Below are positions 1-53,443 of a stretch of DNA of 64,000 bases, piece by piece. Source of the stretch: Candidatus Dojkabacteria bacterium. GTDB lineage: Bacteria; Patescibacteriota; Dojkabacteria; J137. The notes beneath the pieces are model-generated. The model searched no databases. It was not told where the DNA came from and saw only the letters and a list, made by a program, of their open reading frames with translations. Positions within the stretch are counted from its first letter, which is position 1; the number at the start of each line of letters is the position of its first letter. The position numbers were made by a program, and so were the translations under genes. The stretch is from the NCBI GenBank assembly GCA_025999215.1, contig AP024679.1:357645-421644 (forward strand), given 5' to 3'.

Positions 1-569
1 TTAATATTGGGACTTTCTTGTAATAAATTAAAAATAAGGGAATCAGAGTTTAGTATCAATTGAGTATCAGATTCGAGAAAAGATAAAAGTGAACTATTAA
101 AATTTTTTCTAAATAAATTTTGAGAAGTTAATCCGAACAAAAAGTCTTGGTTATCGCTAAAATAAATTTCTAGTGCGTCTAAAATTTTATTATATTTGGG
201 CTTTTCCAAGAAAAGATGAACATTTACATCTGTAACCAAACCATTTTTCACTGAAGTAAAAGTCTCAAATTTTTGATATTGAGGCTTCACAATTTCAACT
301 ATGTATTCACCCTCTGGAATTCCTGTAACCACATTATCTACGGTAGGTTTTTCTTTACCGTTAATATAAACTTTAAAATCTTTAACATTTGATCTAATTC
401 TAATACTGCCAGATGGGACAACTTCGCCTTCTTTAATGTTGATTAAATTGCCCTGAACTACGACCAAAGTAACCACACCTAAAATACTAAAAAAAGTTGC
501 AAGAAAAAAGGTTAAAAACCTTACCCAGATCGGGTTGTAGCGATATGTATACTGATCTGTTTTTTTCAT
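1..569 (-). CDS. Membrane-anchored PEGA-domain protein (5' portion only; C-terminus runs off the window edge)
   Basis: Minus-strand ORF with ATG at 569 (plus-strand cat 567-569), open to position 1. Translation MKKTDQYTYRYNPIWVRFLTFFLATFFSILGVVTLVVV... has one N-terminal TM helix followed by a PEGA-like beta-sandwich pattern (IRIRSNVKDFKVYINGKEKPTVDNVVTGIPEGEYIVEIVKPQYQKFETFTSV). Not in the ORF track because it is truncated by the window. Confidence 0.5.
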   Translation of the reverse strand, partial: MKKTDQYTYRYNPIWVRFLTFFLATFFSILGVVTLVVVQGNLINIKEGEVVPSGSIRIRSNVKDFKVYINGKEKPTVDNVVTGIPEGEYIVEIVKPQYQKFETFTSVKNGLVTDVNVHLFLEKPKYNKILDALEIYFSDNQDFLFGLTSQNLFRKNFNSSLLSFLESDTQLILNSDSLIFNLLQESPNI

Positions 570-659
570 TTTAACTTCGAATTTACTCAAGAATTTTAAC
601 AGAAAAGTTAGTGTGAATAAAATTGTTTTTGTGTTACAATGAAGCATTAGATTACAGTT

Positions 660-1553
660 ATGAAGAAAGTACTTGTTTTGAAAACTAAAAAAGTAAATCC
701 AGCTGATTCTTTGGTTGTAGAGTTAAGTAAATTTTGTGATAAAGATTTCCTAATTGATTTTGCATCACTTCATCAAGACATTGTTTTTAAATTTGTCAAT
801 GGTGCTGAGATTTTCGTCAATGGAAAAAATATTTTAGAATATGATTTAGTTTATTTTAGATCATGGTTTGGGCACTATAAAATTGCTACTGCAGTGTCAA
901 AATATTTGATAGATAATGGTATACCAGTGATAGATTCTGCTTTGCAAAATATATCATTAGGTGGAGTTACCAAAATCTATCAATTTTTAGTGCTAGTTCA
1001 AAATAATTTTCCAGTACCTAAATCTTATGTATTACATCGAGACAATATAAAGAATTTTTTAGATGAAGCAGTTGATGCTTTGGGTGGTTACCCGTTGATA
1101 ATAAAGAAGCACGATGGACACAAAGGTGAAGGAATACATAAAGTTGACAGTGAAAGTGAATTTTATGAAATTTTACCTAATTTAGAGGATAATTATTATT
1201 TTTTACAAGAGTTTATACCAAATGATTTTGACTATAGAGTATTGATTATGGGTAATAAAGTTGTAAGACTAAAGAAAAGAATTAGACCAGAAAACTCAAC
1301 CGATTTTAGAAATAATGTTGCATTAGGAGCTAAAGTTGAATTGGAAGATCCAAAAAAAAATGAAACTGTCAGTAACTTAGGGCTTAAAGCTAGTAAGCTT
1401 TTACAAATTGATATTGCTGGGGTTGATATTGTTATTTCATCTAAAGACAACAAACTTTACATTTTTGAAGTTAATACAAACCCTTCCTTAAACAACGATA
1501 TCACCCAATATAAAGATTTGGCTAATTATTTAAAAAGTGTTGTTAATAATTAA
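660..1553 (+). CDS. RimK-family ATP-grasp amidoligase (alpha-L-glutamate ligase-like)
   Basis: 297 aa. ATP-grasp signature blocks (PLIIKKHDGHKGEGIHKV; YFLQEFIP..DYRVLIMGNKVV; IAGVDIVISSKDNKLYIFEVNTNPSL) match the RimK/glutathione-synthetase-like fold. Diverges from the upstream PEGA gene across a 90 bp promoter region. Confidence 0.7.
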   Translation: MKKVLVLKTKKVNPADSLVVELSKFCDKDFLIDFASLHQDIVFKFVNGAEIFVNGKNILEYDLVYFRSWFGHYKIATAVSKYLIDNGIPVIDSALQNISLGGVTKIYQFLVLVQNNFPVPKSYVLHRDNIKNFLDEAVDALGGYPLIIKKHDGHKGEGIHKVDSESEFYEILPNLEDNYYFLQEFIPNDFDYRVLIMGNKVVRLKKRIRPENSTDFRNNVALGAKVELEDPKKNETVSNLGLKASKLLQIDIAGVDIVISSKDNKLYIFEVNTNPSLNNDITQYKDLANYLKSVVNN

Positions 1554-1752
1554 TTAATTTATAAAAAACGAGTATAAAGATATAACAAAAAATACCTTTA
1601 TCGTTACATAACCTGGAAGCTTTGTAGTCTAATAAAACTGTTACATTCCATAAAAATAAAAGAACAGATTACAAATTTTTGAAAAATGAAGGTTTTGAGA
1701 GAATTTGTAAATATAAACATTAAGTTAGAAATAAAAATTTCTATATAATTTA

Positions 1753-2754
1753 CTAATTTGTGTATTGTTTTATTACTGCATTAATAATTTTTGTAGCGAC
1801 ATCTATAGCCTCTCCATAATCTGGATAATGATGAAAATCTAGTGAAGGTTCGGCATTAATTTCGATTATACTAAATTCTTCAGAACTTATATCTGGTGAA
1901 ATTACATCAACCCCTATTAGATTCAAATTAACATCCAAAAGCATCTTGGATATCATGTAAATTATTTTTGGGTTTACTTCCTTTGTTACTTCAGTTACCG
2001 TTTCTAGATTACTAAAATCCTTATCAACAAAAACTTTCTCATCTTGTTTCGGGATATATGCTAAAGATTCGATTCCTTGTGATTTTAAAAAATTCATTAA
2101 TCTTTGATCTTTTTTAATTCTTCCAACATCTCTTTCAGACTGATCTAAAAATTTATTTTTCCAATTAATTAATGTATCGAGTTGTGAATTACCGTCTCCA
2201 ATAATAAAGCCAGGTTCTCGCTTTAGTGCGCCTATAAGGTTTCCTTCTAAAAATAATAAGCGATAAACATCGCCTGGTATAAACTGTTCAAAAAGTACGC
2301 CTGAATACTTTTTATTTGGAGCAGTGGTAATATTTTGAAAAGCTTCAAGAGCTTTTTCTCTGGTATTTATATCAAGGAAAATATTTTGGCTTTTCATCCC
2401 GTTTGTAGGTTTTGCAATGATTCTTTTATGTTTTTTTAATAACTTATCAATGTTATTTATATTCTGTTGGTTTAATCCAGATTTTTTATAAATATGCACA
2501 TAATTTGGGGTAGGCAAATTATACAATGTAAATAGTTTTTTACAAATAAATTTGTTTTTGGTTAGAGGACGAGCCGATTGATTATTTAAAGGGGTTTGAA
2601 TAGCTTTGAAATATAATAATTTATTTGATACTTTAACTGTAAAACTGTTATTATAAGAATCAATATCTATGATGTCTAAATTTTTATTCAGACATGCTTG
2701 TAGCAACAATCTACAGGATGGTTTCATTAGTTTTATTTTTGTATCTTTATCCAT
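1753..2754 (-). CDS. ATP-grasp protein resembling the N-terminal ATP-grasp domain of cyanophycin synthetase (no Mur-ligase domains)
   Basis: 333 aa. Motifs IIAKPTNGMKSQNIF, GDGNSQLDTLI, IGVDVISPDIS and IIEINAEPSLDFHHYPDYGEAIDVATKIINAV parallel the conserved blocks of the CphA N-domain (GDGxSTIxxLI; aGiDvvtpDIs; EVNAgPGLxMHxxPxxGxxRxVaxaIvd). Confidence 0.6.
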   Translation of the reverse strand: MDKDTKIKLMKPSCRLLLQACLNKNLDIIDIDSYNNSFTVKVSNKLLYFKAIQTPLNNQSARPLTKNKFICKKLFTLYNLPTPNYVHIYKKSGLNQQNINNIDKLLKKHKRIIAKPTNGMKSQNIFLDINTREKALEAFQNITTAPNKKYSGVLFEQFIPGDVYRLLFLEGNLIGALKREPGFIIGDGNSQLDTLINWKNKFLDQSERDVGRIKKDQRLMNFLKSQGIESLAYIPKQDEKVFVDKDFSNLETVTEVTKEVNPKIIYMISKMLLDVNLNLIGVDVISPDISSEEFSIIEINAEPSLDFHHYPDYGEAIDVATKIINAVIKQYTN

Positions 2755-2873
2755 AATATTTAGTTTTAAAAATTACAATACATTAAAGTACTCTGAAAAA
2801 AACATGCTTCAATTTTATAACACAAAGTTATTAAATTAAAATATTGAAACACATTGCTTCTTTAATAATTCTA

Positions 2874-3737
2874 TTAAGATTTCGATAATAAATAATTTAA
2901 TATTTTTTCTGCTAAGTTGATTTTTGTAATTTCTTCAAAAGCTTTAAATCCGGGGCTTGAATTAACTTCTAAAACCAAAGGTTTTTCATCCTTGTAGATT
3001 ATATCAATACCAGAAAATTCTAAGCCTGTTGCCTTAATTATTAATTTACAAATTTCATACATATTAGGAGCAATATGCACTTTCTCAATAGCGCTACCAG
3101 AATTAGTAACAATTGCATTTTTTTTTGCTATTCTTTTATAGCCACCAATAATTTCATATCCCAGGGTAATAATTCTGTAACTTTCTTTAATTTCACCTGT
3201 ATCTACAAAGTCTTGAAACATATATTTACTAATGTGGTCATTCAACTTTGATTTAAGTTCTTCGAGACTGTTAACTTTGTAAATTTCCATTCCTAAACTT
3301 TTGCTGGAGTGTTTTAGAATCACAGGGAATTTGATTTTATATGCGTTTTGCTCCAAAGCTTCAATGGTTGGGAATACGTGTGTATTAATTATTGGTACAT
3401 TGTACAAACTTAGCTTAGCATACGTATCTAGTTTAAGAGAAAATGGATATTTAAACGAGCCGTTTAAAACGATTTTATTCATACTCTGTAAATAATTTCG
3501 CAAACTCTGACTAAGGTGCTTATACTTTGACCCAGAGCTCCTAAAAATATAATGAGTACCATCTAAAACATTTTTACCTTTAGCTGTGGCAATAAGCTTA
3601 TTATCTCTAAACTCTATAATGATATCAGAGTATTTAAAATGTTCAAAAGCAATATTTTTTTTGTTACATTCTTCTCGAAATCTACGAGACGAATAAGAAT
3701 TATAATCTATTTCAGCTAACAATATTACTTTTTTCAT
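2874..3737 (-). CDS. RimK-family ATP-grasp amidoligase
   Basis: 287 aa. FPVILKHSSKSLGMEIYKV, RIITLGYEIIGGYKRIAKK and LVLEVNSSPGFKAFEEI are typical RimK-type ATP-grasp blocks. Lies 17 nt upstream of the next ATP-grasp gene on the same strand. Confidence 0.7.
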   Translation of the reverse strand: MKKVILLAEIDYNSYSSRRFREECNKKNIAFEHFKYSDIIIEFRDNKLIATAKGKNVLDGTHYIFRSSGSKYKHLSQSLRNYLQSMNKIVLNGSFKYPFSLKLDTYAKLSLYNVPIINTHVFPTIEALEQNAYKIKFPVILKHSSKSLGMEIYKVNSLEELKSKLNDHISKYMFQDFVDTGEIKESYRIITLGYEIIGGYKRIAKKNAIVTNSGSAIEKVHIAPNMYEICKLIIKATGLEFSGIDIIYKDEKPLVLEVNSSPGFKAFEEITKINLAEKILNYLLSKS

Positions 3738-3754
3738 AAAAAAAAGATAAAAAA

Positions 3755-5167
3755 TTATGATTTGGTTACGTCAATTATAAAATTTTTAAGGTCAGCCCTC
3801 CCAATAATCATTTTGTAACTTAGATGTGATCTATCTATTATTGTGACATTGGTATCAAATTGAACATCAGATAACTTGATTTTTATTGAAACGATTGGCC
3901 TCAAAGTAATACCATTTCCAGATTTTACAATAGAACGTGCAATTATTTGAGGATGTTCCTTTATTTTACCTTCCTTTATTAATTCATCTCTTTTTTTTGT
4001 TACTGATTTTGCTTCTTCCATAGTTTTGAAAATAGGGTATTTAAATGAATTAAAATAATCTATTATGTCACCATAGCCTAATTCTCGCATTAGGTTTTCG
4101 TCTATTGAAGTTCTATAAGCACCAGTATCTATTTTAGCAAGAACTTCTACGCTTTTACCATTTAGTCCTGTTAGGGTAACTTTTTCATAAATACCAATAA
4201 GTTCTTTTCCGGATAATGTTTCAATTTCTTCTTCAATTTCACCACCAAATAAATCTTTAGCTAATCTAACACCTTTTTCCGTTGTTTTTACTTTAATTCC
4301 ACTTGCTTTTTTAAGTCTCCACCTTAAACCATCATCATTGGCTAGTTGTATTGACAGTCCTGGTCTTGCGTTTAATTCAACAATCAAAGGGCCTTTATCT
4401 TGATCAATCAAAAAGTCTACTGCTACAAAACCAAGCCCGCTCACTTTAGATGCCTCAATAGCATACCTTAGAATTTTGTCCCAATACGGAATTTTTATAC
4501 CAGATAGGGCAAGTTTATTGTCAGGATGTTTTTGGATTGGCGTTGCTTTTCCAATGATTGCATTTGTGGTTTTCCCTATTGCCATGTCAATCCCTGCGCC
4601 AATGGCCCCTCTATCTAGGTTTGCTTTTCCTTCAGATTCTTTTGTGGGAAAACGAACATAAGACATTACTGGAATTTTGTTAAAAACAATTACTCTTACA
4701 TCAGCAGCACCGCGAAAAGAGTAGGGCTTGAGATTTTTATGTTGTCTCACCCTTTCTTCAATTAAAACTATATCTGGTTGATTAAACAGAGAAAATTTAC
4801 CATCTAAAATATCCCTGATATGGTGCTTAATTGATTCTACTGAATGTCTAGAACTATCAGATTTAATCCAATTACCGTTTTCGTCTCGGTTATAGAAAAT
4901 TTCAACACCGCCTCCCCTAACTCCATGAACAGGTTTTATTACAAATGATTTAGGTAAGGTGTCAAAGTCGAACTGAGATAATTCCCATCTATTTTTAATA
5001 ATTGCTATTTTTGATGGAGTTGGAATTTTGTGTTTATTTAAAATTTTTTTAGTCAACACTTTATCGTCAGCTATTTTGATGGCTGAACGTAAATTAAATG
5101 GCCTTATATACTCGAGATACCGCTCGTTTAAACCAAGAACTTTTTTGGCGTTTTTTGTTCTAAACAT
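3755..5167 (-). CDS. Fusion protein: alpha-L-glutamate-ligase-like ATP-grasp domain plus C-terminal retropepsin-like DUF785 (putative ATP-dependent Zn protease / RimB-like) domain
   Basis: 470 aa. N-terminal two-thirds carry ATP-grasp blocks (FVIKPVHGVRGGGVEIF; GAADVRVIVFNKIPVMSYVRFP..GKANLDRGA; LIVELNARPGLSIQ). C-terminal ~130 aa (VEVLAKIDTGAYRTSID ... IIDRSHLSYKMIIGRADL) match the DUF785/Zn-protease family that neighbours RimK in other bacteria (RimB of Pseudomonas rimABK). A 1-nt gap to the downstream 7TM gene implies translational coupling. Confidence 0.65.
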   Translation of the reverse strand: MFRTKNAKKVLGLNERYLEYIRPFNLRSAIKIADDKVLTKKILNKHKIPTPSKIAIIKNRWELSQFDFDTLPKSFVIKPVHGVRGGGVEIFYNRDENGNWIKSDSSRHSVESIKHHIRDILDGKFSLFNQPDIVLIEERVRQHKNLKPYSFRGAADVRVIVFNKIPVMSYVRFPTKESEGKANLDRGAIGAGIDMAIGKTTNAIIGKATPIQKHPDNKLALSGIKIPYWDKILRYAIEASKVSGLGFVAVDFLIDQDKGPLIVELNARPGLSIQLANDDGLRWRLKKASGIKVKTTEKGVRLAKDLFGGEIEEEIETLSGKELIGIYEKVTLTGLNGKSVEVLAKIDTGAYRTSIDENLMRELGYGDIIDYFNSFKYPIFKTMEEAKSVTKKRDELIKEGKIKEHPQIIARSIVKSGNGITLRPIVSIKIKLSDVQFDTNVTIIDRSHLSYKMIIGRADLKNFIIDVTKS

Positions 5168-5168
5168 A

Positions 5169-5873
5169 TTATCTAGGTCTGAAAATCAGAGATCTAAATC
5201 GCCAGTATTCGCTTAAACGTAAACCTTTGTAAGTGCCGATATACATGTTGGCACCAATTATGGCGATTAAAACTAAAATGGGGTAGTTAAATATTAATTC
5301 GTGTAGCGGTTTTGCGCTAATGATTAAAAAACTTAATATGCTAATGATTAAAGTTTGTAAACTAATGTAAAAAGCATATTTAAAATTCTTTCTTGCAAAT
5401 ACTGCAAAAAATCCTTCACACAAAATAATCATCATTACTAATGTGAAAAAATTTACATAAATTAATCCGTATTCATCTATTAAAGTTCCATAAATCATTG
5501 AGGCTATTACACTAATTGATACAGCAGTAACGATTAAAGTTGTTTTAGGTATGTAGTGCATTCTCAGAGGTTTTAATACCCAATAATAAATTGCACCAGT
5601 AGTAATAAAAACAATTAGAAAAAGCACTACCCCTAATTTGATGCTATTTTCTATATCCGGTTTTGTGCTTACTCCTTCTGTGCCTATTTCGTATATTGCA
5701 AAAGGGATGATCAATGGGGCATAAGTGTTAATTGTTTTGAGCCCAAGTAAGTGTCTGCTAAATCCAACCAAAGTCGAAACAATTGGAAGCATCATCAACA
5801 ACAAAAAGGTTTGTTTAATTGAATCAATCTCTGTTACTCCAGCATCCAAAAGTATATTCCAAATTACATCCAT
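5169..5873 (-). CDS. Polytopic (about 7 TM) integral membrane protein, possible 7TM_transglut-like partner of the ATP-grasp/protease genes
   Basis: 234 aa, very hydrophobic with about 7 predicted helices. It is the first gene of the minus-strand operon feeding into the ATP-grasp genes. The family assignment comes from architecture and context, not motif identity. Confidence 0.45.
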   Translation of the reverse strand: MDVIWNILLDAGVTEIDSIKQTFLLLMMLPIVSTLVGFSRHLLGLKTINTYAPLIIPFAIYEIGTEGVSTKPDIENSIKLGVVLFLIVFITTGAIYYWVLKPLRMHYIPKTTLIVTAVSISVIASMIYGTLIDEYGLIYVNFFTLVMMIILCEGFFAVFARKNFKYAFYISLQTLIISILSFLIISAKPLHELIFNYPILVLIAIIGANMYIGTYKGLRLSEYWRFRSLIFRPR

Positions 5874-5930
5874 AGATATTAATTAACTCGCAAATTATAC
5901 CATATTTCTTAAAAATTTTCTATTTTTTAA

Positions 5931-5966
5931 AACAAACAGGCGGGGAAATAACCCCGCCTGTTTGTT
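5931..5966. terminator. Perfect 15-bp GC-rich hairpin (aacaaacaggcgggg / ccccgcctgtttgtt, loop aaataa) between rplL and the 7TM gene; rho-independent terminator of the rplKAJL operon
   Basis: Inverted repeat read directly from the sequence, with T/A runs on both sides; it is the GC-richest element in an AT-rich spacer. Confidence 0.6.
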
Positions 5967-24733: not shown

Positions 24734-25027
24734 ATGCAAACAGATTATGAGCTAATGGTAGTGCTAAAGCCACTTTTGATGGAGGATATTAAAGATAAAA
24801 TTATCCCAAAGATAAGTAAAGAAGTAAAAAAACTTGGTGGAACTTTAGAACTCAAAGATAACATGGGTAAGAGAATCCTTGCTTATCCTATCAAGGGTTA
24901 TAAAGAAGGGTATTATTTAGTGTACAAATTAACAATAGATTCTGATAAAATAAATGAACTAAATAATTGGCTCAAAATTTATGACGCGCTTTTACGTCAT
25001 TTAATTATTAGAGAAGATCAACTTTAA
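24734..25027 (+). CDS. rpsF: 30S ribosomal protein S6
   Basis: 97 aa; YELMVVLKP...G..ELKD.MGKR.LAYPIKG...GYYLVYKL is the S6 fold signature; rpsF-ssb-rpsR order. Confidence 0.85.
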   Translation: MQTDYELMVVLKPLLMEDIKDKIIPKISKEVKKLGGTLELKDNMGKRILAYPIKGYKEGYYLVYKLTIDSDKINELNNWLKIYDALLRHLIIREDQL

Positions 25028-33760: not shown

Positions 33761-34266
33761 ATGTATGAACAAATTATTTTAGGTGTTGATGTAGGTTTTG
33801 CAATTACTGGATGGGCGATACTAGAGTCATCCTCAAAAATTAATCTTCTTGATTATGGCGCAATAACTACTAAATCAAAGCTATCTATAGATGAGATTGG
33901 TTAAATTATTTATTCGATGGAATTGTTGAAGTAATAAATACTTATAAACCTACAGACATGGCTGTTGAGTCGATTTTTTATTTTAAAAACCAAAAAACTG
34001 TTATAGATGTGGGCCAGGCTAGAGGAGTAATATTATTAGCTGGATGTCAGAATAACTTGAATATATCTCACTACACTCCGCTTCAGGTTAAAATGTCAAT
34101 AACGGGATATGGTAGAGCATCAAAAGAGCAAATGCAACAAATGGTTAAATCTATCTTTGGTTTAAAAGAAATTCCCAAGCCGGATGATGTGGCAGATGCA
34201 ATCGCTGTTGCTTATTGTCATAGTTCATCAAGTAAATTTTATTCCAATTTGAATACCAAAACATAA
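33761..34266 (+). pseudogene. ruvC: Holliday junction resolvase RuvC with an apparent 1-nt deletion frameshift near 33896-33904
   Basis: N-terminal 47 codons (MYEQIILGVDVGFAITGWAILE...KLSIDEIG*) hit a stop at 33902-33904. The +2 frame continues LNYLFDGIVEVINTYKPTDMAVESIFYFKNQKTVIDVGQARG... to 34266. Both parts have RuvC motifs (GiDpG..tG; catalytic region D.ADA.A.A..H). Confidence 0.7.
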
Positions 34267-35841: not shown

Positions 35842-37732
35842 AATTGCTACAGATTTAGCTCAAAAACTTTATGGAGATAAATTGTAAAATTTTATATTTA
35901 AATGAAATTTAATTTTAAAAAACTAACAGTTAGACAAAAAGTAACAATATCTTCTTTTTTTTATCTTTGCTTATTTTTTTCTTGATTAGTCCACTGGGTA
36001 GGTATTTTGGTAAGTTTAGTAACTCCACCAAAGACTGTAAAAAATATTTTTATATTATCAAAAAATAATGAAATAGAAATTAGTTATCTCTCAAAATAAA
36101 GAAGTTGATTTCAGTGCATACATAATTACATTAAAAAGAGAAGGAACTGTTGAAAAAGAAATTATAACTCAAGAAACAAGAGTTCTTATTTCGGACATTT
36201 CGGACAGTGTAGAGTATGATCTGGAGATAAAAAGTAAAGATAAATTTGGGCTTGAATCTAGTACTGTTGCTACTAAAGTTACGCCTAGTTTTGACTTGAT
36301 TCTCAAACATTAAATTCTTTTGATAGAAATGATACTTTTGATTTTTACTTGATAGTAATGTTTTGATTGTGGTTGTTGTTGGTTCTATATTTTCATTCTG
36401 GATAGTTGGATTTAATCAAAATAAACAGTTGCTTTTACTATAATTTTATTTCCTATGTGCTTGAATGCCTATTTTACTTTTTATTAAGTTCTGTCAGTTT
36501 TTATATTAATCACATATTGATAATAAGTTTTATTTTTCAATTTGTCTAGTGTAGGGTTGTTTTTGTATTTTATTTTTTGTTTTTGACTATGAATATTTTG
36601 TTTAATGCTCACTTTAGATCAATACCCTTGAACAAGCTGCAAAAGCGTCTCAATTTATTTTTATATTGATATCAACATATATTTTGTTAATTTATGCTTT
36701 TGGTTCAAATGTTAATTTTATTTTTAAAATAGGTTGAGTTTCTCTAATGATATTTTATTTTTCATATGTTTCAATGTGGACTTTGAAAGAATCTCAACAG
36801 AGCAAATACAATTAGAAGCTTGGTGATGGTTATGATTATGGTAATGTCTGTGGTTGATATTTTCTATTTGGCCAGTTAATTATATTTATGCAATGCTTAT
36901 CAAGCGCAATTATTTTTTATATTATGTTGAGTATTAGCTTGGAAGTTAGGACTTTTTAGGTAGGTATGTGTGGCTGGAATACGGAATCTTAGTTTTACTA
37001 ACTACTTTCTACTTTTATTTACAGTAGTTGGGGATAATGGAAGTTTATAATGTTAATATTCATAGTTTAATTAATTTAATAAATAGAAGATTTAATAACC
37101 ACTTTCATAATTACTAGAGTAGTGTAGCTTAATTTCTATTTGATTTTACTTTATAAGTTTTTTTAATTTCAAATTAATTCTTTTCGATTTTTTAAATAAT
37201 TAAAAATATTCTAAAAAAATCGTAAGAGTAGTATATCAATTGTGGATAACTGTAAGTATAGTTACTGAGTATAATGTATCTTATATTTAGTAAAATGGTG
37301 GAAAAACAGAATAGTAATATGCAACTAATTTAATTATTTTTTTTCTTCATATTTTATAATTCTTTTTATATTAATAACGTTGTTAATTTTTTAACTTCAA
37401 CTTTTTTTTTAGCGACTTTTAACTTTTATCTTTTATTCTTTTATTCTCTAATTTTAACTTTTAATTTTTTTTTGTTTTTACTATGTTTCATAAAGGATTT
37501 AAAACTAATTTTGACTAATTTTTAATCTTGAAGTTTTGAACTTGAAAATCTTTATTATTTTTAGATGAGTAAAATATCAGTTTTAAAAAAACAGGCCTTA
37601 AATCGCATCTGAGCGCTTCGTTTGTGGATAGTTTTACTAGCAATGGTTTTAGGGCTTTATGTAAAATAATTGCTAATTTACTAAATTTAAATTTGTTAGT
37701 TTTTTTTTATATTTTATCTTTAACTAAAAACT
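35842..37732. other. 1.9 kb ORF-free AT-rich region between convergent ruvB and gyrA, with a gene remnant and DnaA-box-like 9-mers
   Basis: No ORF of 60 aa or more on any frame. Contains a stop-initiated 77-codon coding-like remnant (36080-36312), the tandem repeat tttcggaca-tttcggaca (36189-36206), TGTGGATAA at 37241-37249 and TGTGGATAG at 37623-37631, long poly-T tracts and strong T-over-A strand skew. Confidence 0.5.
36189..36206. repeat. Direct tandem duplication tttcggaca-tttcggaca
   Basis: Read directly from the sequence. Confidence 0.55.
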
Positions 37733-40371: not shown

Positions 40372-42283
<1,912 letters not shown>

Positions 42284-43641: not shown

Positions 43642-45585
43642 ATGGACTCAAAAAACAATGTATCAAATTCAAATAATGATGATTCTCTAAATAGTAGTTT
43701 GGGAGTTGTACAGTCATCTAATGACGATGCCCTTCCAAATTCAAATCTTTCTGATTCCCAAAGCGATTTAGTTTCTTTATCAAAAAACTTTCTACAACAA
43801 AAAACAAAAAAAACAGATTCAAACCAAAAATCTGCTATCGGAGTCAAAGGCATATCAAATATTTTAGATGCTGTTTTAAGTAAAGGTTTAATAGATATAG
43901 ATCAGTACAATAGTATAAAATTTGAATCCGTAAACACTGGCAAAACAATTGAAAAGATTTTGCTTGAGCAGAATATTGTAGATGAAAAGGAGTTAGCAAG
44001 AATTAACGCTGAGATGAGAGGATTTAGTTTTGCTGACTTGCTAAACATGAATATTGACTCAGATACCATCAATTTGCTTCCTCAATCAATAGCTAGAGCG
44101 AACAAGGCGGTTGTTTTTGAATCTCTACCCAACAAAGTTAAGGTGGCAATGAAAGATCCGCTTGATTTGCAAAAAATTCAGTATTTAGAATCTATTTTGA
44201 AAAAAAGAATAGAGCCTTTTTATGCATCAGAAAGCGATATTAAGCGAATCATTGATACTCGTTATGGTGCTGAAATAAATAAAGAGGTTACAGAGGCGTT
44301 AGAAGATATTGGGGAATATGATTTAAACAAAGCTAAAAAGGAGGCAGAAAATTCTGATGGACAAGATGCACCAATAATTCGATTGGTAAATATGATTTTA
44401 GATTATGGGATTAAAAATAAAGCTTCAGATATACACATTGAACCAAGAGAAACTAAAGTGGCTGTAAGGTTCAGAATAAGAGGAATTTTAACTGAAAAAT
44501 TAACCATTCCAAAAAAGTTACATCCAGCAGTTGTGGCAAGGATAAAAATTTTGTCAAATTTAAAAATTGATGAGCACAGAATACCTCAAGATGGAAGATT
44601 CCCAGTTAAAAATAATGATGTATCAATTGATGTGAGAGTTTCAGTGATGCCAAGTTTATATGGTGAAAAAATAGTTTTAAGATTGCTCGAAAAATCTTCC
44701 GGAATCATGAAATTAGAAGAAACAGGCATTCGTGGAATTAGTTACACCAGACTTAAGGAGGCGTTGAAAAAAACACAAGGATTGATCTTGGTAACAGGAC
44801 CAACTGGAAGTGGAAAGACGCAGACTGTTGCAAGCTGTTTAGACATTATAAATTCCCCTGAAGTTAATATTATCACTCTTGAAGATCCCGTTGAAATTAG
44901 AATTGAAGGCATTAATCAAACTCAAGTGAATCCAGAAGTCGGCCTTACTTTTGCTACTGGGTTGAGATCAATTTTGAGGCAGGACCCAGATATCATATTT
45001 GTTGGAGAAATTCGTGATGGTGAAACAGCGGCTCTTGCAGTGCAAGCAGCTCTAGTTGGAAGATTAGTACTTTCAACATTGCACACAAATAGCGCGGCTG
45101 GAGTCTTTCCTAGGCTTTTAGATATGGGGGTTGAAGTTTTTTTATTAACATCTACAATAAATGTAGCGTTGGGTCAACGTCTTGTTCGTACTCTTTGTGA
45201 AGAATGTAAAGAACCATACAAGGCACCTGATAATATTTTAAAAATTTTACATTCTGAGTTAGATGTATTGGGGAATTTGACAGTTTACGATGAAGCAAAG
45301 CATGTGAAGGCGCATTTCGATAAAAACACAAATGACGTAACATTATACAAACCTGTAGGATGTCCGAAATGTAACGATACTGGCTTTAATGGCCGAATTG
45401 GTATTTTTGAATGTCTGGAAATGTCCGAAAGTATTAAAAAAGCAGTTGTACAAAAAAGATCAATAAGCGAAATTCAAGATATAGCTGTGAAGGAAGGAAT
45501 GATAACAATGGCACAAGATGGGTTTATAAGAGTATTGGAAGGAGTTACAACTATAGAAGAAGTATTAAGAGTTAAAAATGAATAA
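43642..45585 (+). CDS. pilB: Type IV pilus assembly ATPase PilB (GspE family) with low-complexity N-terminal region and CxxC zinc motif
   Basis: GSPII_E N-domain; Walker A GPTGSGKTQT; Asp/His boxes; CPKC...C zinc tetracysteine. Confidence 0.9.
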   Translation: MDSKNNVSNSNNDDSLNSSLGVVQSSNDDALPNSNLSDSQSDLVSLSKNFLQQKTKKTDSNQKSAIGVKGISNILDAVLSKGLIDIDQYNSIKFESVNTGKTIEKILLEQNIVDEKELARINAEMRGFSFADLLNMNIDSDTINLLPQSIARANKAVVFESLPNKVKVAMKDPLDLQKIQYLESILKKRIEPFYASESDIKRIIDTRYGAEINKEVTEALEDIGEYDLNKAKKEAENSDGQDAPIIRLVNMILDYGIKNKASDIHIEPRETKVAVRFRIRGILTEKLTIPKKLHPAVVARIKILSNLKIDEHRIPQDGRFPVKNNDVSIDVRVSVMPSLYGEKIVLRLLEKSSGIMKLEETGIRGISYTRLKEALKKTQGLILVTGPTGSGKTQTVASCLDIINSPEVNIITLEDPVEIRIEGINQTQVNPEVGLTFATGLRSILRQDPDIIFVGEIRDGETAALAVQAALVGRLVLSTLHTNSAAGVFPRLLDMGVEVFLLTSTINVALGQRLVRTLCEECKEPYKAPDNILKILHSELDVLGNLTVYDEAKHVKAHFDKNTNDVTLYKPVGCPKCNDTGFNGRIGIFECLEMSESIKKAVVQKRSISEIQDIAVKEGMITMAQDGFIRVLEGVTTIEEVLRVKNE

Positions 45586-46799
45586 TGAATGATAATTTAA
45601 ACACACAAAATTTACAACAAAATAATCAAAATTTAGGGAATGATAGCTTACCAGTTGAGCAAAAATTTGATAATGGAGTGAGGCAAATTCAAAATACTGA
45701 TCAAATGGCTTCAAATAATATGAATGTCCAAAACTTGGTTCCTAAAGAGATGGGATTATTTGATATATTAAAGCAGGCAATTTTACAAGAGGCCTCAGAT
45801 ATTCATCTTTCAAGTGGTTACCGAGCGATTCTTAGAGTTGATGGAAAATTAAAAACTTTATTTTCTCAAGTTTTAACGTCTGATCAGATTAGAAATTTTG
45901 TAATTGAGATTCTTGGTAACAAAAGAGTTAACTTAGATACAATTGAGCAGCTCGATTTAAGTTATGAGTTTCAACAAAATAGATTTAGAGTAAATATTTT
46001 TAAAGAATTAGGAGAGTTTTCTGTGGTCATGAGGTTAATTCCAAAGACTATTCAGACTATAGAAGAGTTAGATTTACCTGATTCATTAAAACAAATAACC
46101 AATCTATCTCAAGGTTTAGTATTAGTAACTGGTCCTACCGGAAGTGGAAAATCAACTACAATAGCTTCACTAATAAACATGATCAATCTAACTCAGCCTA
46201 GGCATATTATTACACTTGAGGATCCAGTCGAATACATTTTTCCAAAAGGTATGGGATTGGTAGATCAAAGAGAATTTGGTATTGATTTTTCAAAATGGAC
46301 TGATGCAATTAGGTCAACACTCAGGCAAGACCCTGATGTCGTATTGGTTGGTGAAATGAGAGATTTTGAAACCATAGCTTCGACAATTACTTTAGCAGAA
46401 ACTGGCCACTTGGTGTTTGCTACTCTACACACTAATTCTTCGGCGCAAGCAGTAGATAGAATAATTGATGTTTTTCCGTCAAGCCAACAAACTCAAATCA
46501 GGGCGCAACTTGCAAATGTAATTGAAGCGGTTGTATCTCAGAGATTGGTTCCTATTCAAGGAGGAGGTAGAAAACCTGCAGTTGAAATATTATTTGCAAC
46601 TAGTGCAGTTAGAAATGCCATAAGAGAGGCTAAAACTCATCAGATAGATAATTTAATTCAAACAAGTCAAAACTTAGGAATGATGACCATGGAACAATCA
46701 TTAGTTAATATGGTCAGAAGAGGATATATAAGCGTAGAACAAGCAGAAAGAATAAGTTTGAAACCAGACCAAATTAAGTTGTTACTTCAAAGTTCATGA
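45585..46799 (+). CDS. pilT: Type IV pilus retraction ATPase PilT
   Basis: Walker A GPTGSGKSTT; His box ATLHTNSSAQAVDRI; AIRNAIRE motif; no zinc CxxC. Confidence 0.85.
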   Translation: MNDNLNTQNLQQNNQNLGNDSLPVEQKFDNGVRQIQNTDQMASNNMNVQNLVPKEMGLFDILKQAILQEASDIHLSSGYRAILRVDGKLKTLFSQVLTSDQIRNFVIEILGNKRVNLDTIEQLDLSYEFQQNRFRVNIFKELGEFSVVMRLIPKTIQTIEELDLPDSLKQITNLSQGLVLVTGPTGSGKSTTIASLINMINLTQPRHIITLEDPVEYIFPKGMGLVDQREFGIDFSKWTDAIRSTLRQDPDVVLVGEMRDFETIASTITLAETGHLVFATLHTNSSAQAVDRIIDVFPSSQQTQIRAQLANVIEAVVSQRLVPIQGGGRKPAVEILFATSAVRNAIREAKTHQIDNLIQTSQNLGMMTMEQSLVNMVRRGYISVEQAERISLKPDQIKLLLQSS

Positions 46800-48028
46800 A
46801 TTTTAAGTATGTTGCAATAAATTCTGAAGGAAAAAGAATTGAAGGAAATCGCGAAGCTGACAGTCGTGAAGATGTTGTAAATTTCTTACTTAATCAGGAT
46901 TTAACAATTGTTTCAATAAGTGAAAATATAAATTTAGATTTTAAAAAAATTTTAAGTTCTGATATTGGAGGACTACCTTTGGCAGAAAAATTAGTATTAG
47001 TAAAACAGTTGTCTACAATGATTTCTGCGGGTATTCCACTACTTCAGGCTTTAGACATCTTGGTACAACAAACAGAAAAGGAGGCACTTAAAGAAAAATT
47101 ACAAAAAGTATATGAAGGTGTTGAATCTGGTCAAACACTGTCCAAATCTTTTGCTAAGGTTGGCGGAATTTTTTCTGAAGTTCAACTGAGTTTAATATCT
47201 GCTGGAGAACAATCAGGAAATCTTGCAGAGATGCTATTAAAAGTTACAGATGATCTAGAAGAGAGTAAAAATTTAAGAGGAAAAATTGTTGGGGCATTGA
47301 TTTATCCGGCAATTATTTTGACAGTGTTGGTTGTGGTTGTGGTTGTAATGATTGTCTTTATGGTTCCTCAAATTGAAGCTTTATACGAAAGTTTGAATAG
47401 AGATGATTTAGAGTTACCTATAACCACCAGGTTTTTTATTTTTATTAGCAACTTTTTTAGAAATCCATTTGGTTTAATTATATTTTTAATATCTATGTTT
47501 GGGCTTTATCTGGGCTTTAGAGCTTATGCATCTACTCCTGGTGGTAGGTTAAATGTAGATAGATTTAAACTCAAAATACCTGTTTTTGGAAAATTAATTA
47601 TAAAAGCTGAATTAACTCAATTTACAAGAGTTTTATCTATGTTATTACAAAGTGGAATTCCGATAATAGAATCAATTAAGATAACTGCTGAGGCACTTGG
47701 TAACGAAGCGTTCAAGCAAACAGTTAAAGCTTCTGTTGATGGCGTAAAAAAAGGAGAATCACTTTCTGTATCACTGGCAAAGAATAATAAGTATAACGTT
47801 TTGCCGCTTATTTTGTTGAAAATGATAGCGACAGGTGAAGAATCAGGCAAACTAGATAAAGTTTTGGAAGATATAAGTAGATTCTATAACGCAGAAGTTA
47901 AACAGACCACTGATAATTTAACTAAACTTTTAGAACCATTTATTCTATTGTTTGCTGGGGTTATGGTTGCTTTTTTAGCTTTGTCTATATATTTGCCAAT
48001 ATATCAAATTATGAATGCAGTTCAATGA
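46796..48028 (+). CDS. pilC: Type IV pilus platform protein PilC (GspF family)
   Basis: Two GspF repeats, each with TM helices (LSTMISAGIPLLQAL...; LSMLLQSGIPIIESI...). Confidence 0.9.
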   Translation: MNFKYVAINSEGKRIEGNREADSREDVVNFLLNQDLTIVSISENINLDFKKILSSDIGGLPLAEKLVLVKQLSTMISAGIPLLQALDILVQQTEKEALKEKLQKVYEGVESGQTLSKSFAKVGGIFSEVQLSLISAGEQSGNLAEMLLKVTDDLEESKNLRGKIVGALIYPAIILTVLVVVVVVMIVFMVPQIEALYESLNRDDLELPITTRFFIFISNFFRNPFGLIIFLISMFGLYLGFRAYASTPGGRLNVDRFKLKIPVFGKLIIKAELTQFTRVLSMLLQSGIPIIESIKITAEALGNEAFKQTVKASVDGVKKGESLSVSLAKNNKYNVLPLILLKMIATGEESGKLDKVLEDISRFYNAEVKQTTDNLTKLLEPFILLFAGVMVAFLALSIYLPIYQIMNAVQ

Positions 48029-48044
48029 TTCGGACATTCGGACA
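48029..48044. repeat. Adjacent tandem attcggac-attcggaca immediately after the pilC stop codon
   Basis: Read directly from the sequence (cagttcaaTGAttcggacattcggacaagg). Confidence 0.55.
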
Positions 48045-48154
48045 AGGGTAAGTTTTTTGTTTAGTTTTAGATATAGTTTGAAAATGTATTGACAAAAAAT
48101 AAAAAAATTGAGAAATTGATATAGTCATATTAATTTATTTGTTAATTCAAAAAT

Positions 48155-48598
48155 ATGAAAAATAAAAAAGCGTTTACGCTACTTGAACTGATGGTAGCAA
48201 TGGGAATTATTGCGATTCTTGCTGCTATCAGTGTAGTAGGTATTTCTGTTGTGCAAAGATCTCTTAGAAATACGGAAAGGAGAAAGGTCTTAGAGAATAT
48301 TAATCTCTCTATAGCTGAGTATTTTGGAACTTATGGGGAATATCCAGCACTGGGAGCAGGTGGATTGCAATTCTTCACAGACAGAGTTGAATTAGAAGGT
48401 AATGTGATTGTAGAGTTGAATGGAGCTACTCAGGCAACTAATGGTACCGATACAACATCTGGAGCAACAGCATATTGTTATACTCAAATCAATGGTGGTG
48501 GATCATATTCTTTAGGAGTTGATTTGGAAGGATCAAATTGGGGATTCCAGCTAGGAGACCCATTGCAAGCTGATTGCGCTACACAAAATGTATTGTAA
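48155..48598 (+). CDS. pilA: Type IV major pilin (PilA-like)
   Basis: Class III signal peptide and N-methylated-Phe helix MKNKKAFTLLELMVAMGIIAILAAI; C-terminal Cys pair (C..C) for the D-region. Confidence 0.8.
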   Translation: MKNKKAFTLLELMVAMGIIAILAAISVVGISVVQRSLRNTERRKVLENINLSIAEYFGTYGEYPALGAGGLQFFTDRVELEGNVIVELNGATQATNGTDTTSGATAYCYTQINGGGSYSLGVDLEGSNWGFQLGDPLQADCATQNVL

Positions 48599-48619
48599 AA
48601 GGTGTAAAAATAGTTATTT

Positions 48620-49087
48620 ATGAAAAATTTATTGAAGAAAAATTTAGGCCGTAAGCCTAAATTTTTCTTTGTCGACAAAACCAAAAAAGCTTTCACCATG
48701 ATTGAAATAGTGGTGGGCTTAGCTGTGATTACGGTTTTAGTTGCTCTAGGTGTAACAGGAATTTCAATTTTACAAAAAAATAGTCGCGATTCAATGCGAA
48801 AAGAAAAGTTACTTGAAGTTGCAACTTTGGTTGAAAATTACTTCCGTGAGAATTTGACATATCCTAGTTCTCAAAGCCTTGTTTTTAGTGGCAATCAAAT
48901 TTTACTTGAAGGTGATATAGTATCAGATATAAAAGGTCATTTACAAGTTGGGGATGTAACTACATCTTCGCAAACTAGATATTACTATCAAGCTACTTCA
49001 AGTGGTTATGCCTTGTGTGCAGTTTTAGAAAATAATAAAGTTTATTCAGCGGGAAAAATTGAGTGTCCGGATCCTTCAATGTGGTAG
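48620..49087 (+). CDS. Type IV pilin-like protein (second pilin); true start probably downstream of 48620
   Basis: KKAFTMIEIVVGLAVITVLVALG prepilin N-terminus; C-terminal Cys pair. The 5' end of the ORF-track model overlaps the pilA terminator, so a later start codon is likely. Confidence 0.65.
   Translation: MKNLLKKNLGRKPKFFFVDKTKKAFTMIEIVVGLAVITVLVALGVTGISILQKNSRDSMRKEKLLEVATLVENYFRENLTYPSSQSLVFSGNQILLEGDIVSDIKGHLQVGDVTTSSQTRYYYQATSSGYALCAVLENNKVYSAGKIECPDPSMW
48638..48670 (+). terminator. Rho-independent terminator after pilA (aaaaatttaggc-cgtaa-gcctaaattttt followed by cttt)
   Basis: 12-bp stem read directly from the sequence; U-rich 3' side. Confidence 0.5.
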
Positions 49088-49093
49088 CTTGAC

Positions 49094-49924: not shown

Positions 49925-50468
49925 AAAAGCTTTTTCATTGTTAGAAATAATTGTAGTTTTGGGGATTACCGCTGCAGTTATGAGCGGTGGGGTTTTGGCG
50001 TTGATCAGGTTTCAAGATTCAGCTGAATTTAATAGATATTTTTCTGATACTGTTTCTTTGATTAAGACAACTCAAAATCGCTCATACAATGGTGTTTTAA
50101 GTCAGACCAAATCGCTAGCTCTTGGTGGAAATGCGCTAGAATCAGTACCAGAATACTATGCAATTATCATTGATGAGAATGATGATTCGATTGGTCTTTA
50201 TTATTGTGATGAAACATTGACTGGTATTTTATCGTGTTTTCGAGAACAAGAAATTTTAGTAATTGATTTTCCAAGTGATATTCAAGTTAGTAGTACTGGG
50301 TGTAGTGGTGTTGGGTTTAAAACTTTAAATCCAGATATAATTTTAATAAATTCTAATGGGACTTTTACAACCAACGGAGTGTGTGAAATCACCTTGACAC
50401 ATACTAACCTAAATCGAAATAATACTTTAGAATTTAATGCAGATAACAATGTTTTTGAACTTAATTAA
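49890..50468 (+). CDS. Minor (pseudo)pilin with prepilin-type N-terminus
   Basis: IKKAFSLLEIIVVLGITAAV N-terminus (G-F-S-L-L-E). Confidence 0.6.
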   Translation: MLQIYFCMVYIKKAFSLLEIIVVLGITAAVMSGGVLALIRFQDSAEFNRYFSDTVSLIKTTQNRSYNGVLSQTKSLALGGNALESVPEYYAIIIDENDDSIGLYYCDETLTGILSCFREQEILVIDFPSDIQVSSTGCSGVGFKTLNPDIILINSNGTFTTNGVCEITLTHTNLNRNNTLEFNADNNVFELN

Positions 50469-53442: not shown

Positions 53443-53443
53443 T

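Follow-up and report, generated by a model that had tools for sequence, protein, structure and literature searches.

The locus raises the question of what four ATP-grasp ligases, a retropepsin-like protease and a seven-helix membrane protein make together in the tiny genome of a Candidatus Dojkabacteria (Patescibacteria/CPR) bacterium. We find that it is a streamlined variant of the RloABC operon known from Pseudomonas aeruginosa and other Gammaproteobacteria (Lormand et al. 2025, PMC12239564), and not a new kind of system. All six open reading frames of the preliminary description are present at the positions it gave in the window, the 64,000-nt stretch of DNA analysed here (Table 1), and its domain assignments agree with Pfam and NCBIfam profile matches; the g5 stop lies 1 nt from the g4 start, as claimed. 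The five genes of the locus are consecutive but do not form a single operon, since g1, on the plus strand, runs towards g2 and is preceded by a divergent promoter region of its own. The term "paralogous", applied earlier to the four ligases, is valid at the superfamily level only, because they fall into three distinct ATP-grasp families of remote kinship: in BLASTP comparisons among the four, g1 and g3 share 25% identity (2e-9), and the remaining pairs give weak partial matches at best (1.6e-4, 5.6e-5) or none. Alignments to RimK, CphA2, Ddl and RloC show that all four keep the catalytic residues of the fold, namely the Lys/Gly-rich loop and the D...E-x-N metal-binding triad.

Table 1. Features of the locus, in positions of the 64,000-nt window.
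Feature	Positions	Strand	Basis or remark
g5, 7-TM protein, 234 aa	5169-5873	-	PF14402, 2.5e-18
g4 ligase domain, RloC-type ATP-grasp, residues 1-307	4247-5167	-	TIGR02291, PF14397
g4 fusion-specific linker, residues 308-320	4208-4246	-	near-invariant, predicted disordered
g4 retropepsin domain, RloA/RimB-type, residues 321-470 + stop	3755-4207	-	PF05618, RloA2
g3, RimK-family ATP-grasp, 287 aa	2874-3737	-	accessory cassette; PF08443
g2, cyanophycin-synthetase-G-domain/Ngg-type ATP-grasp, 333 aa	1753-2754	-	accessory cassette; TIGR02068
g1, RimK-family ATP-grasp, 297 aa	660-1553	+	accessory cassette, separate transcript; PF08443
PEGA-domain membrane protein, partial ORF	1-~569	-	PF08308, 2.8e-7
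rplL-g5 intergenic hairpin and T-run, then promoter-like sequence	5894-5966	-	

The 470-residue g4 protein (3755-5167, minus strand) joins an N-terminal ATP-grasp ligase to a C-terminal retropepsin. Its ligase part matches ATPgrasp_ST (PF14397, 2.7e-66) and the "alpha-L-glutamate ligase-like" model TIGR02291 (2.7e-78), the latter with 263 bits and thus under the 314-bit equivalog cut-off, and aligns with Legionella RloC over the whole length of RloC (34% identity, 8e-59). Among solved structures, the closest folds are those of ArgX/LysX, RimK and CphA1, and K78, D251, E264, N266 and R268 are invariant in the homologue alignment. Canonical RloC terminates at ...KEMF, immediately before the g4 linker (GGEIEEEIETLSG, residues 308-320), which is nearly invariant in sequence, with FGGE kept in at least 95% of 80 fusions, and predicted to be disordered, with pLDDT <50 at residues 310-318. 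The C-terminal domain matches Zn_protease (PF05618, 1e-8) and scores better with RloA2 (4.9e-10) than with RimB (2e-4); it is 29% identical to Legionella RloA (3e-7), and a profile of 53 homologues finds the RloA crystal structures 9g58 (1.3e-6) and 9g59 (8e-6). The AKIDTGA and IIGR motifs read from this domain earlier are confirmed, D347, G349 and G456 being invariant across the 53 homologues. Residues K345, D347, R423 and R446, all four invariant, align with K46, D48, R114 and R137 of RloA, its poly-Glu-binding and catalytic residues, and mutational evidence links R114 and R137 to poly-Glu cleavage (PMC12239564). Lacking a signal peptide and joined to the ligase, the protease domain is predicted to be cytoplasmic.

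The resemblance of g5 to 7TM_transglut, anticipated in the preliminary description, is real, with PF14402 matched over profile positions 53-247 of 248 and the RloB model NF052267 over positions 310-506 of 508; a profile search detects no transglutaminase-like ectodomain (Transglut_i_TM, PF14400) in g5. The alignment to Legionella RloB residues 307-503 (24% identity, 2e-11) includes the C-terminal G..G.RL.E..RF motif. An AlphaFold2 model has seven transmembrane helices (mean pLDDT 81), and the conserved residues cluster at the cytoplasmic face, including the terminal GLRLxEYxRF motif, which is kept as far as Legionella RloB. We find no solved relative of the 7TM fold, and g5 may be an exporter, a sensor, an anchor or an acceptor.

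In all of the related loci (77/77) the fusion gene is immediately preceded by a g5 homologue, and the two genes often overlap at their stop and start codons. More than 120 protein clusters show the fusion, and relatives of it are encoded by at least 312 species of the genome collection, so the module is widespread in Patescibacteria and its presence in a reduced genome is not the surprise it was first taken to be. The fit to a computationally predicted ATP-grasp, DUF785-protease and 7TM trio was correctly recognised; an RloABC-type trio was reportedly predicted in this way by Iyer, Abhiman, Burroughs and Aravind in 2009.

The three further ligases, thought at first to be fixed members, belong to a variable cassette, which sits between fixed flanks and occurs in two different synteny backgrounds. 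Related loci carry from zero to four extra amide ligases: 45 of 60 have at least one right behind the core, and the other 15 have none; g2 and g3 are absent from the closest relative (fusion 74% identical), and their participation is therefore not obligatory. The g1 protein matches RimK (PF08443, 1.4e-20; TIGR00768, 3.7e-32) and RimK structures (6e-11), its DFRNN motif aligning with DFRSN of RimK, and g1-like genes are on the same strand and in the operon in many related loci. The g3 gene starts 17 nt downstream of g4, and its product gives similar matches (PF08443, 4e-26; TIGR00768, 2.5e-29, under the model cut-off; RimK structures, 1e-9). Both proteins reach 42-49 bits with the S6-Glu ligase model, whose cut-off is 331 bits. 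The likeness of g2 to the ligase domain of cyanophycin synthetase is borne out by its best match, TIGR02068 positions 157-473 (G domain only, 1e-42), with 146 bits against a cut-off of 850; it also matches GshAB and N-acetylglutaminylglutamine synthetase (TIGR03103, 4.6e-24, again far under the curated cut-off) and, in the PDB, 7ta5 (629 aa, deposited as "Glutathione synthase"; 4.5e-24) and cyanophycin synthases (1e-20). Seven of eight g2 homologues at 43-49% identity are GNAT and ATP-grasp fusions of ~500 aa; this GNAT domain is missing from g2, as are the N and M domains. In locus L085 the gene for one such homologue overlaps the fusion gene at its end, the overlapping order being fusion, GNAT-ATP-grasp, RimK. 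Five close g2 homologues share a contig with a fusion gene (two seen directly, in L009 and L085, and three inferred from contigs of identical length).

The preliminary description reasonably pointed to a machine for non-ribosomal peptides or poly-amino acids. We favour, with moderate confidence, a Patescibacteria form of the Rlo-type amidoligase module that would make an acidic, poly-alpha-Glu-like peptide at the membrane and trim it. Here g5 is an RloB homologue cut down to its membrane half, N-terminus out and C-terminus in, whose cytoplasmic face may dock the translationally coupled g4, and g4 unites in one cytoplasmic polypeptide an RloC-type ligase and a homodimeric aspartic endopeptidase (retropepsin) of RloA/RimB type. 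Homology suggests that the ligase extends a carboxyl terminus by amino acids at the expense of ATP, which would yield an acidic chain, in analogy to ArgX/LysX and RimK, whose target in a protein or peptide is an acidic residue at the C-terminus. The amino acid would most likely be L-glutamate, alpha-linked, a specificity that we extrapolate for an RloC-type ligase from RimK and from the protease cleft. The fused protease, with the Lys/Arg poly-Glu cleft of RloA, would cut the chain, and may act as RimB does with RimK, both trimming chains and being needed for detectable free poly-alpha-Glu. The cassette ligases, two of the RimK family and one of CphA-G/Ngg type, may prime, extend or diversify the g4 peptide. 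RimB stimulates poly-alpha-Glu synthesis by RimK, and natural RimBK hybrids are active (PMC11957791); loss of the RloA proteases is suppressed by deletion of rloB or rloC (PMC12239564).

As in RloABC, a TIGR02291/PF14397 ATP-grasp, a PF05618 retropepsin and a PF14402 7TM domain share one operon, and the poly-Glu-binding Lys/Arg, the catalytic Asp and the cytoplasmic C-terminal motif of the 7TM protein are conserved. The differences are that ligase, linker and protease are fused and cytoplasmic here, whereas RloA is a separate, secreted protein, which possibly implies a different logic such as processing before export; that the RloB homologue lacks the Transglut_i_TM ectodomain; that the order is 7TM, ligase-protease rather than protease, 7TM, ligase; that a variable cassette of extra ligases follows; and that the host belongs to the Patescibacteria, 96% of RloB matches being in Proteobacteria (PMC12239564). 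RimK/RimB and the natural RimBK hybrid (Little et al. 2025, PMC11957791) likewise couple an ATP-grasp Glu ligase, functionally or (RimBK) physically, to a cytoplasmic poly-Glu-cutting retropepsin that stimulates production of free poly-alpha-Glu. In contrast, the g4 ligase is RloC-type and not RimK-type, its protease is C-terminal rather than N-terminal as in RimBK and scores higher with RloA models than with the RimB model, it has an obligatory 7TM partner, and S6 here lacks the acidic C-terminus that RimK extends. With CphA1/CphA2 and Ngg (TIGR03103), g2 shares the ATP-grasp (G) domain common to both, most of its closest orthologues carry an Ngg-like N-terminal GNAT domain, and some relatives encode a separate CphA-M-domain-like protein, but g2 itself is stripped of the adjoining domains and resides in an Rlo-type operon, not beside asnO, an M42 peptidase or cyanophycinase.

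An alternative is cell-envelope modification: with the 7TM protein as membrane partner, the ligases would assemble or modify a peptide carried by peptidoglycan or by some other surface polymer, much as ATP-grasp and Mur-type ligases make the stem peptides and cross-bridges of murein and pseudomurein. This strikes us as unlikely, if worth weighing. In either synteny type, cell-wall or morphogenesis genes flank the module (PBP1A at 31 loci, MreB at 25, also PEGA), Pseudomonas Rlo mutants show cell-shape and beta-lactam phenotypes, Shewanella hypervesiculates on loss of its RloB homologue, g1 and g4 weakly match the archaeal pseudomurein ATP-grasp model NF053643, and eight cassettes contain Mur-ligase-like genes. 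These flanks are, however, fixed within each lineage and the variable cassette is inserted between them and the core, so the adjacency can be plain synteny. The PEGA-domain membrane protein beside g1 is real, but it does not behave as the cluster member it was proposed to be: conserved as a flank within Dojkabacteria, also at loci without an accessory ligase, it is nearly absent outside them, occurs in 1 of 29 loci unlinked to rplL, and is probably a syntenic flank outside the module. Moreover, the g4 protease cleft is of poly-Glu type, no sugar- or lipid-carrier genes are seen in the module, and the Mur-ligase-like protein is a much better fit to the M domain of cyanophycin synthetase (5e-27) than to MurE (1e-10). 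That fit, obtained for the one representative tested (TIGR02068 positions 562-859), speaks instead for a cyanophycin-like store, with g2, alone or with other ligases, polymerising Asp/Glu or beta-Asp-Arg-type units and the fused protease mobilising a nitrogen or amino-acid reserve. A g2-like gene shares the cassette in five of the eight relatives that have the Mur-ligase-like gene, the two would amount to a split CphA-like pair, and g2 matches the CphA G domain and solved cyanophycin synthases. Such a store is nevertheless improbable: the M-domain-like gene is not found in the window, g2 lacks the CphA N domain and falls far below the model cut-off, the architecture of seven of its eight homologues is that of N-acetylglutaminylglutamine synthetase, whose product is a dipeptide and not a polymer, many core-keeping loci lack g2, and no cyanophycinase is seen.

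Protein tagging, directed at the cytoplasmic tail of the 7TM protein (Iyer/Aravind-style) or at S6 or L7/L12 (RimK-style), appears distinctly improbable. RimK, LysX and ArgX all modify protein C-termini, some Dojkabacteria 7TM proteins end in ...EEE or ...SESD, and rplL precedes the module in 35 of 68 loci; yet g5 of the window ends in ...IFRPR, tails beyond the conserved motif vary, L7/L12 ends in ...VELK, and S6 (24734-25027, 97 aa) ends in ...REDQL with no acidic tail, while g1 and g3 score far below the S6-Glu ligase cut-off. Nor does the link to S6 and the ribosomal operon suggested earlier survive, since about half of the related loci lie away from ribosomal genes and since rplL and g5 are set apart by a terminator, a GC-rich hairpin of 15 bp (5931-5966) with a T-run, and then by a promoter, the extended -10 promoter-like sequence TAGAAA-17-TGgTATAAT (5922-5894). 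A strong hairpin occupies the equivalent position in 37 of 37 rplL-linked (Dojkabacteria-type) loci, and the rplL adjacency is lineage-specific synteny. It is highly improbable that the extra ligases came to lie beside an Rlo-type pair by chance and serve unrelated ends, such as the glutamylation of cofactors or the making of dipeptide osmolytes; the separate strand and promoter region of g1, the widely varying cassette content and the loci without an extra ligase fit this, but extra amide ligases follow the core directly in three quarters of loci and in two synteny backgrounds, cassette genes overlap in L085, and close g2 homologues recur on contigs with the fusion gene.

For the Rlo-type module that we favour, the physiological role is probably envelope or osmotic homeostasis, to judge from the Rlo phenotypes. 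Since RloABC has been characterised experimentally (PMC12239564) and ligase-retropepsin hybrids are known in RimBK (PMC11957791), the novelty of the locus is lowered; what is new is a fused cytoplasmic ligase-protease, an RloB homologue devoid of its ectodomain and a variable cassette of ligases, in tiny-genome Patescibacteria.

We find that the adjacent genes g5, encoding a 7TM protein of 234 aa, and g4, encoding a 470-aa ligase-retropepsin fusion, very probably constitute a variant of the Rlo system, that is, of the RloABC trio of Pseudomonas and Legionella that comprises a retropepsin (RloA), an inactive-transglutaminase/7TM protein (RloB) and an ATP-grasp ligase (RloC). All six ORFs listed in the preliminary description of the window are present, and searches with Pfam and NCBIfam profiles return every domain that it had assigned. 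The five genes are consecutive, as it held, but they do not form one transcript, as g1 is encoded on the other strand and converges on g2, which puts it outside the transcript of g2. Likewise, there are four ATP-grasp ligases, but they are paralogues at superfamily level only, since they fall into three families that are barely alignable to one another. Alignments to RimK, CphA2, Ddl and RloC, together with a motif listing, show that the Lys/Gly-rich loop and D...E-x-N triad are intact in each ligase, and we take these to be the ATP- and Mg-binding residues of the superfamily. The accessory ligases g1 and g3 score 74 and 92 bits against PF08443 (cut-off 21) and 112 and 103 bits against TIGR00768, below its cut-off of 143; an in-operon orthologue in the related locus L085 lies above it, at 160 bits.

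Genes at the left end of the window and their best domain assignments
Feature	Position	Strand	Assignment
g1	660-1553	+	RimK-family ATP-grasp, 1.4e-20
g2	1753-2754	-	ATP-grasp; best model cyanophycin synthetase, positions 157-473, 1e-42
g3	2874-3737	-	RimK-family ATP-grasp, 4e-26
g4	3755-5167	-	ATPgrasp_ST, 2.7e-66; TIGR02291 'alpha-L-glutamate ligase-like', 2.7e-78; C-terminal Zn_protease/RloA-type retropepsin, 1e-8 / 4.9e-10
g5	5169-5873	-	7TM_transglut, 2.5e-18
Truncated ORF	left edge of window		PEGA domain

The names of the NCBIfam models led us to the RloABC operon, a trio reportedly predicted computationally by Iyer in 2009, and for comparison we used an rloABC operon annotated on a plasmid of Legionella adelaidensis. 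g4 scores 224 bits against PF14397 (cut-off 31.4) and 263 bits against TIGR02291, short of the 314-bit cut-off, and is thus a family member below the equivalog level; RloC is a cytoplasmic ATP-grasp of this same family. Residues 10-307 of g4 match Legionella RloC end to end (34% identity, 8e-59), and residues 321-469 match Legionella RloA (29% identity, 3e-7), with the retropepsin domain at 35.6 bits against PF05618 (cut-off 27). RloA is a separate, secreted protein with a signal peptide, whereas g4 is a cytoplasmic fusion with a non-hydrophobic N-terminus and carries its retropepsin as the C-terminal domain. The active-site and poly-Glu-coordinating residues are nonetheless common to both: K345, D347, R423 and R446 of g4, invariant in 53 homologues, align with K46, D48, R114 and R137 of RloA, which represent the catalytic Asp and the poly-Glu-binding cleft, with R114 and R137 backed by mutagenesis (PMC12239564). 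An AlphaFold2 model of g4 built from a 53-sequence alignment has two confident domains (mean pLDDT 88), and the nearest folds to its ligase domain are ArgX/LysX, RimK and CphA1.

The three functions united in the rloABC operon are likewise united in g5-g4, with a reduced membrane component. RloB, as in Legionella, carries a PF14400 ectodomain followed by PF14402, whereas g5 has PF14402 alone, with about 20 residues ahead of TM1. The expected similarity to 7TM_transglut is real (PF14402, 66.9 bits), while g5 reaches 55 bits against NF052267, with a cut-off of 900. Residues 18-229 align with the final 200 residues of Legionella RloB (24% identity, 2e-11), a match that takes in the terminal motif, GTYKGLRLSEYWRF in g5 and GQYRGYRLLELVRF in Legionella RloB. 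The model of g5 (mean pLDDT 81) bears out the seven TM helices, and by the positive-inside rule the N-terminus is placed outside and the Arg/Lys-rich C-terminus inside; the conserved positions R40, G44, R104-MHYIPK110, K162 and G217-LRLxEYxRF226 are then all on the cytoplasmic side. Confidence in the model is low at the terminal motif, as would be expected of a partner-binding segment. A fold search of the g5 model against the PDB returns nothing at E <0.1, and thus no solved structure like the 7TM fold. The family is small, with 775 matches at E <=1e-3 among 1.84 billion representative proteins; the best 150 of these include 71 that are 7TM-only, 36 with a short N-terminal extension and 34 that are RloB-like (~500 aa), and 34 of the top 35 are 7TM-only.

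The two domains of g4 are joined by a linker, F-G-G-E-I-E-E-E-I-E (window 4208-4249, minus strand; residues 307-320), that starts exactly where canonical RloC ends. It is among the best-conserved stretches of the protein, with FGGE found in at least 95% of 80 fusions, and its residues 310-318 are disordered in the AlphaFold2 model (pLDDT <50). The linker is nearly invariant although the fusions share only 45-74% identity. Measured requirements for contiguous Glu are at least six for RimB, a cytoplasmic relative of RloA, and at least eight for RloA; the linker has at most three and so is no obvious substrate by these rules, and autoprocessing of the linker would, by this analogy, be unsupported.

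g4 has a 100% identical counterpart on an 862-kb contig of a Candidatus Dojkabacteria MAG (KatS3mg085), which makes the host a genome-reduced member of the Patescibacteria/CPR. The fusion is widespread. Across the best 120 protein clusters (54-100% identity), the matches span 98-100% of g4, and a scan of one genome per species finds a g4 relative in at least 312 species; the best 80 of the 312 are nearly all full-length fusions (45-64% identity) and are labelled Dojkabacteria, Moranbacteria, Paceibacteria, Woesebacteria and Parcubacteria. A few relatives have records under other names, with synteny unchanged. Separately, an archaeal plasmid of Halobacterium sp. DL1 (CP007061.1, 106119-107030) encodes an RloC-like ATP-grasp, 33% identical over 94% of the query. 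Gene calls in 82 related loci, classified by comparison with the proteins of the window, show the core to be co-conserved: the 7TM gene immediately precedes the fusion in all 77 loci that have sufficient upstream DNA, the stop codon of the former often overlapping the start codon of the latter (1 nt separates them in the window). The pair is preceded by rplL, the ribosomal L7/L12 gene, in 35 of 68 loci (the Dojkabacteria type) and by YebC and RuvC in the remainder.

Downstream of this core lies a variable cassette of one to four extra amide ligases (45 of 60 loci), at least one of them on the same strand in 40 of the 45, positioned between the core and fixed, lineage-specific flanks (MreB and PEGA for loci of the Dojkabacteria type, PBP1A for the second type). 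Its members are g1-like, g2-like and g3-like ligases, a fifth, GshB/RimK-like ATP-grasp and a Mur-ligase-like protein, sometimes with a MATCAP/QEGLA carboxypeptidase or a DUF3541 protein; in L085 the 7TM, fusion, GNAT-ATP-grasp and RimK genes overlap end to end. In the closest relative (L001; fusion 74% identical), the cassette is reduced to one g1-like gene plus a Mur-ligase-like remnant, which argues that it turns over quickly. This remnant-like ORF of 118 aa (L001:9537-9893, minus strand), which groups with the Mur-ligase-like proteins, is found where the window has g3 and g2. The carboxypeptidase (DUF1704) occurs in seven loci (e.g. L066:6303-7637), and the DUF3541 protein in at least one related operon (L003:10425-11381).

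g2 corresponds to the G domain of cyanophycin synthetase, without its N or M domain (146 bits against a TIGR02068 cut-off of 850), and its closest solved relatives belong to the cyanophycin-synthase family: 7ta5 (629 aa, deposited as 'Glutathione synthase', 4.5e-24), 8fxh and several cyanophycin synthases. Of the eight sequences most similar to g2 (43-49% identity), seven are GNAT + ATP-grasp fusions of about 500 aa, the architecture of N-acetylglutaminylglutamine synthetase, but none attains the TIGR03103 cut-off of 569 bits; g2 itself, at 85 bits, has no GNAT domain, having lost it or never had it. That synthetase forms a trio with asnO plus an M42 peptidase, whereas the g2 orthologues, mostly GNAT-bearing, occur in Rlo-type operons, and five close homologues can be placed on a fusion-bearing contig, two directly (L009, L085) and three by inference from contigs of identical length. 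Stand-alone Mur-ligase-like genes occur at L038:12636-13898 and in L006, L016, L034, L041, L061 and L084; a representative best matches the cyanophycin synthetase M domain (TIGR02068 positions 562-859, 5e-27), and five such loci carry a g2-like G-domain gene in the same cassette. Judged from these matches, the two genes would be a split CphA-like pair, of which we know of no earlier description. A search of the window for an M-domain-like ligase, MATCAP/QEGLA carboxypeptidase, the fifth ATP-grasp type, DUF3541, PBP1A and MreB finds none of them.

P. aeruginosa depends on its three redundant secreted retropepsins, RloA1-3, to tolerate hypo-osmotic conditions and beta-lactams, to keep a normal cell shape and to form biofilms; these enzymes cleave runs of at least eight Glu in vitro, and their loss is suppressed by deleting RloB or RloC (PMC12239564). 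RimB trims poly-Glu and is needed for detectable free poly-alpha-Glu from RimK, and natural RimBK hybrids exist and are active (PMC11957791). What the Patescibacteria module makes, and to what end, is a more tentative matter, in which our confidence falls slightly short of even. The minimal 7TM partner would hold or control the cytoplasmic bifunctional enzyme, which would build an acidic peptide, most likely alpha-linked and Glu-rich, and then cut that same peptide, while the variable extra ligases would prime, extend or diversify the chain. The rivals to this acidic-peptide reading are modification of the envelope, with the beta-lactam and cell-shape phenotypes of Rlo to be kept in mind; a cyanophycin-like polymer, to be considered with the G-domain character of g2; tagging of proteins; and chance clustering of the extra ligases. 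Searches for a precursor peptide of the RiPP/graspetide type in the g1-g2 and g2-g3 spacers yield only short, hydrophobic, low-complexity ORFs and no candidate. Anti-phage defence was likewise set aside, none of the five proteins having a PADLOC match.

One form of protein tagging, the RimK-type modification of ribosomal protein S6 at which the preliminary description had hinted, is rejected. E. coli RimK needs an acidic S6 tail; S6 of the window (24734-25027, 97 aa) ends in ...REDQL and so has no acidic tail for such extension. Scores against the S6-Glu ligase model NF007764 (cut-off 331 bits) are far too low, at 42, 49 and 17 bits for g1, g3 and g4. A terminator and a promoter also separate g5 from the ribosomal genes: 3' of rplL on the coding strand is a 15-bp GC-rich hairpin with a T-run, then, about 20 nt before the start codon of g5, TAGAAA-17-TGgTATAAT, and all 37 rplL-linked relatives have a hairpin of comparable strength in this spacer. 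Finally, the synteny with rplL is limited to Dojkabacteria.

Other features of the window are recorded here. The 1.9 kb between ruvB and gyrA (35842-37732; ~26% GC) has no ORF of 60 aa or more and returns nothing from Rfam at E <=0.1; it holds three DnaA-box-like 9-mers (one perfect) inside 600 nt, with ~0.2 expected from the window-wide density, and may be an oriC-like region. gyrB (40372-42283, minus strand) is seemingly two ORFs ~85 nt apart, encoding an N-terminal ATPase part of 331 aa (41288-42283) and a C-terminal part of 276 aa (40372-41202), which could reflect a frameshift, a pseudogene or an assembly error. A RuvC-like ORF (33958-34266, plus strand) has just 102 aa, against ~170 aa in relatives, and apparently lacks an N-terminal part, which would fall between the yebC end at 33727 and 33958. 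A long co-directional cluster (43642-54747, plus strand) encodes ATPase-like, PilC-like and several pilin-like proteins with N-terminal 'KKAFTLLE/KGYSLVE' motifs and, going by the ORF translations, looks like type IV pilus genes.

Systems of this kind are already known, having been predicted in 2009 and characterized by genetics and structures in 2025, and ligase-retropepsin hybrids are known too. Four aspects appear undescribed in the literature searched: the RloC-RloA fusion in this domain order, an RloB homologue that lacks the transglutaminase-like domain, the variable cassette of ligases attached to the pair, and the wide distribution in Patescibacteria, as against 96% of RloB hits in Proteobacteria (PMC12239564). 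Our search for literature on Patescibacteria/CPR with ATP-grasp and RimK returned a single paper that mentions ATP-grasp, on graspetides, and no title or abstract describing this module. A bolder reading, which we consider improbable, is that the fused module is a membrane-gated 'write-and-erase' machine for a polyanionic peptide (poly-alpha-Glu or a cassette-dependent, possibly cyanophycin-like heteropolymer) that serves as an amino-acid/osmolyte buffer in cells unable to make amino acids, with a role for the invariant, disordered GGEIEEEIE linker as an internal primer, a pseudosubstrate or a site of autoprocessing; if so, the product of the Rlo ligase would be handled first in the cytoplasm, revising the periplasm-centred Pseudomonas picture.

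In Pseudomonas, Rlo influences osmotic tolerance, cell shape, the formation of biofilms and sensitivity to beta-lactams. The ligase-protease fusion is 'Rosetta-stone' evidence that both activities act on the same molecule and are able to do so in the cytoplasm. It never occurs without its minimal 7TM partner in the loci compared and is kept in hundreds of genome-reduced Patescibacteria species. The two proteins also offer biochemists a simpler system. From the variability of the ligase cassette it would seem that the peptide product has diversified between lineages, and the known range of the Rlo system reaches well past the Proteobacteria.
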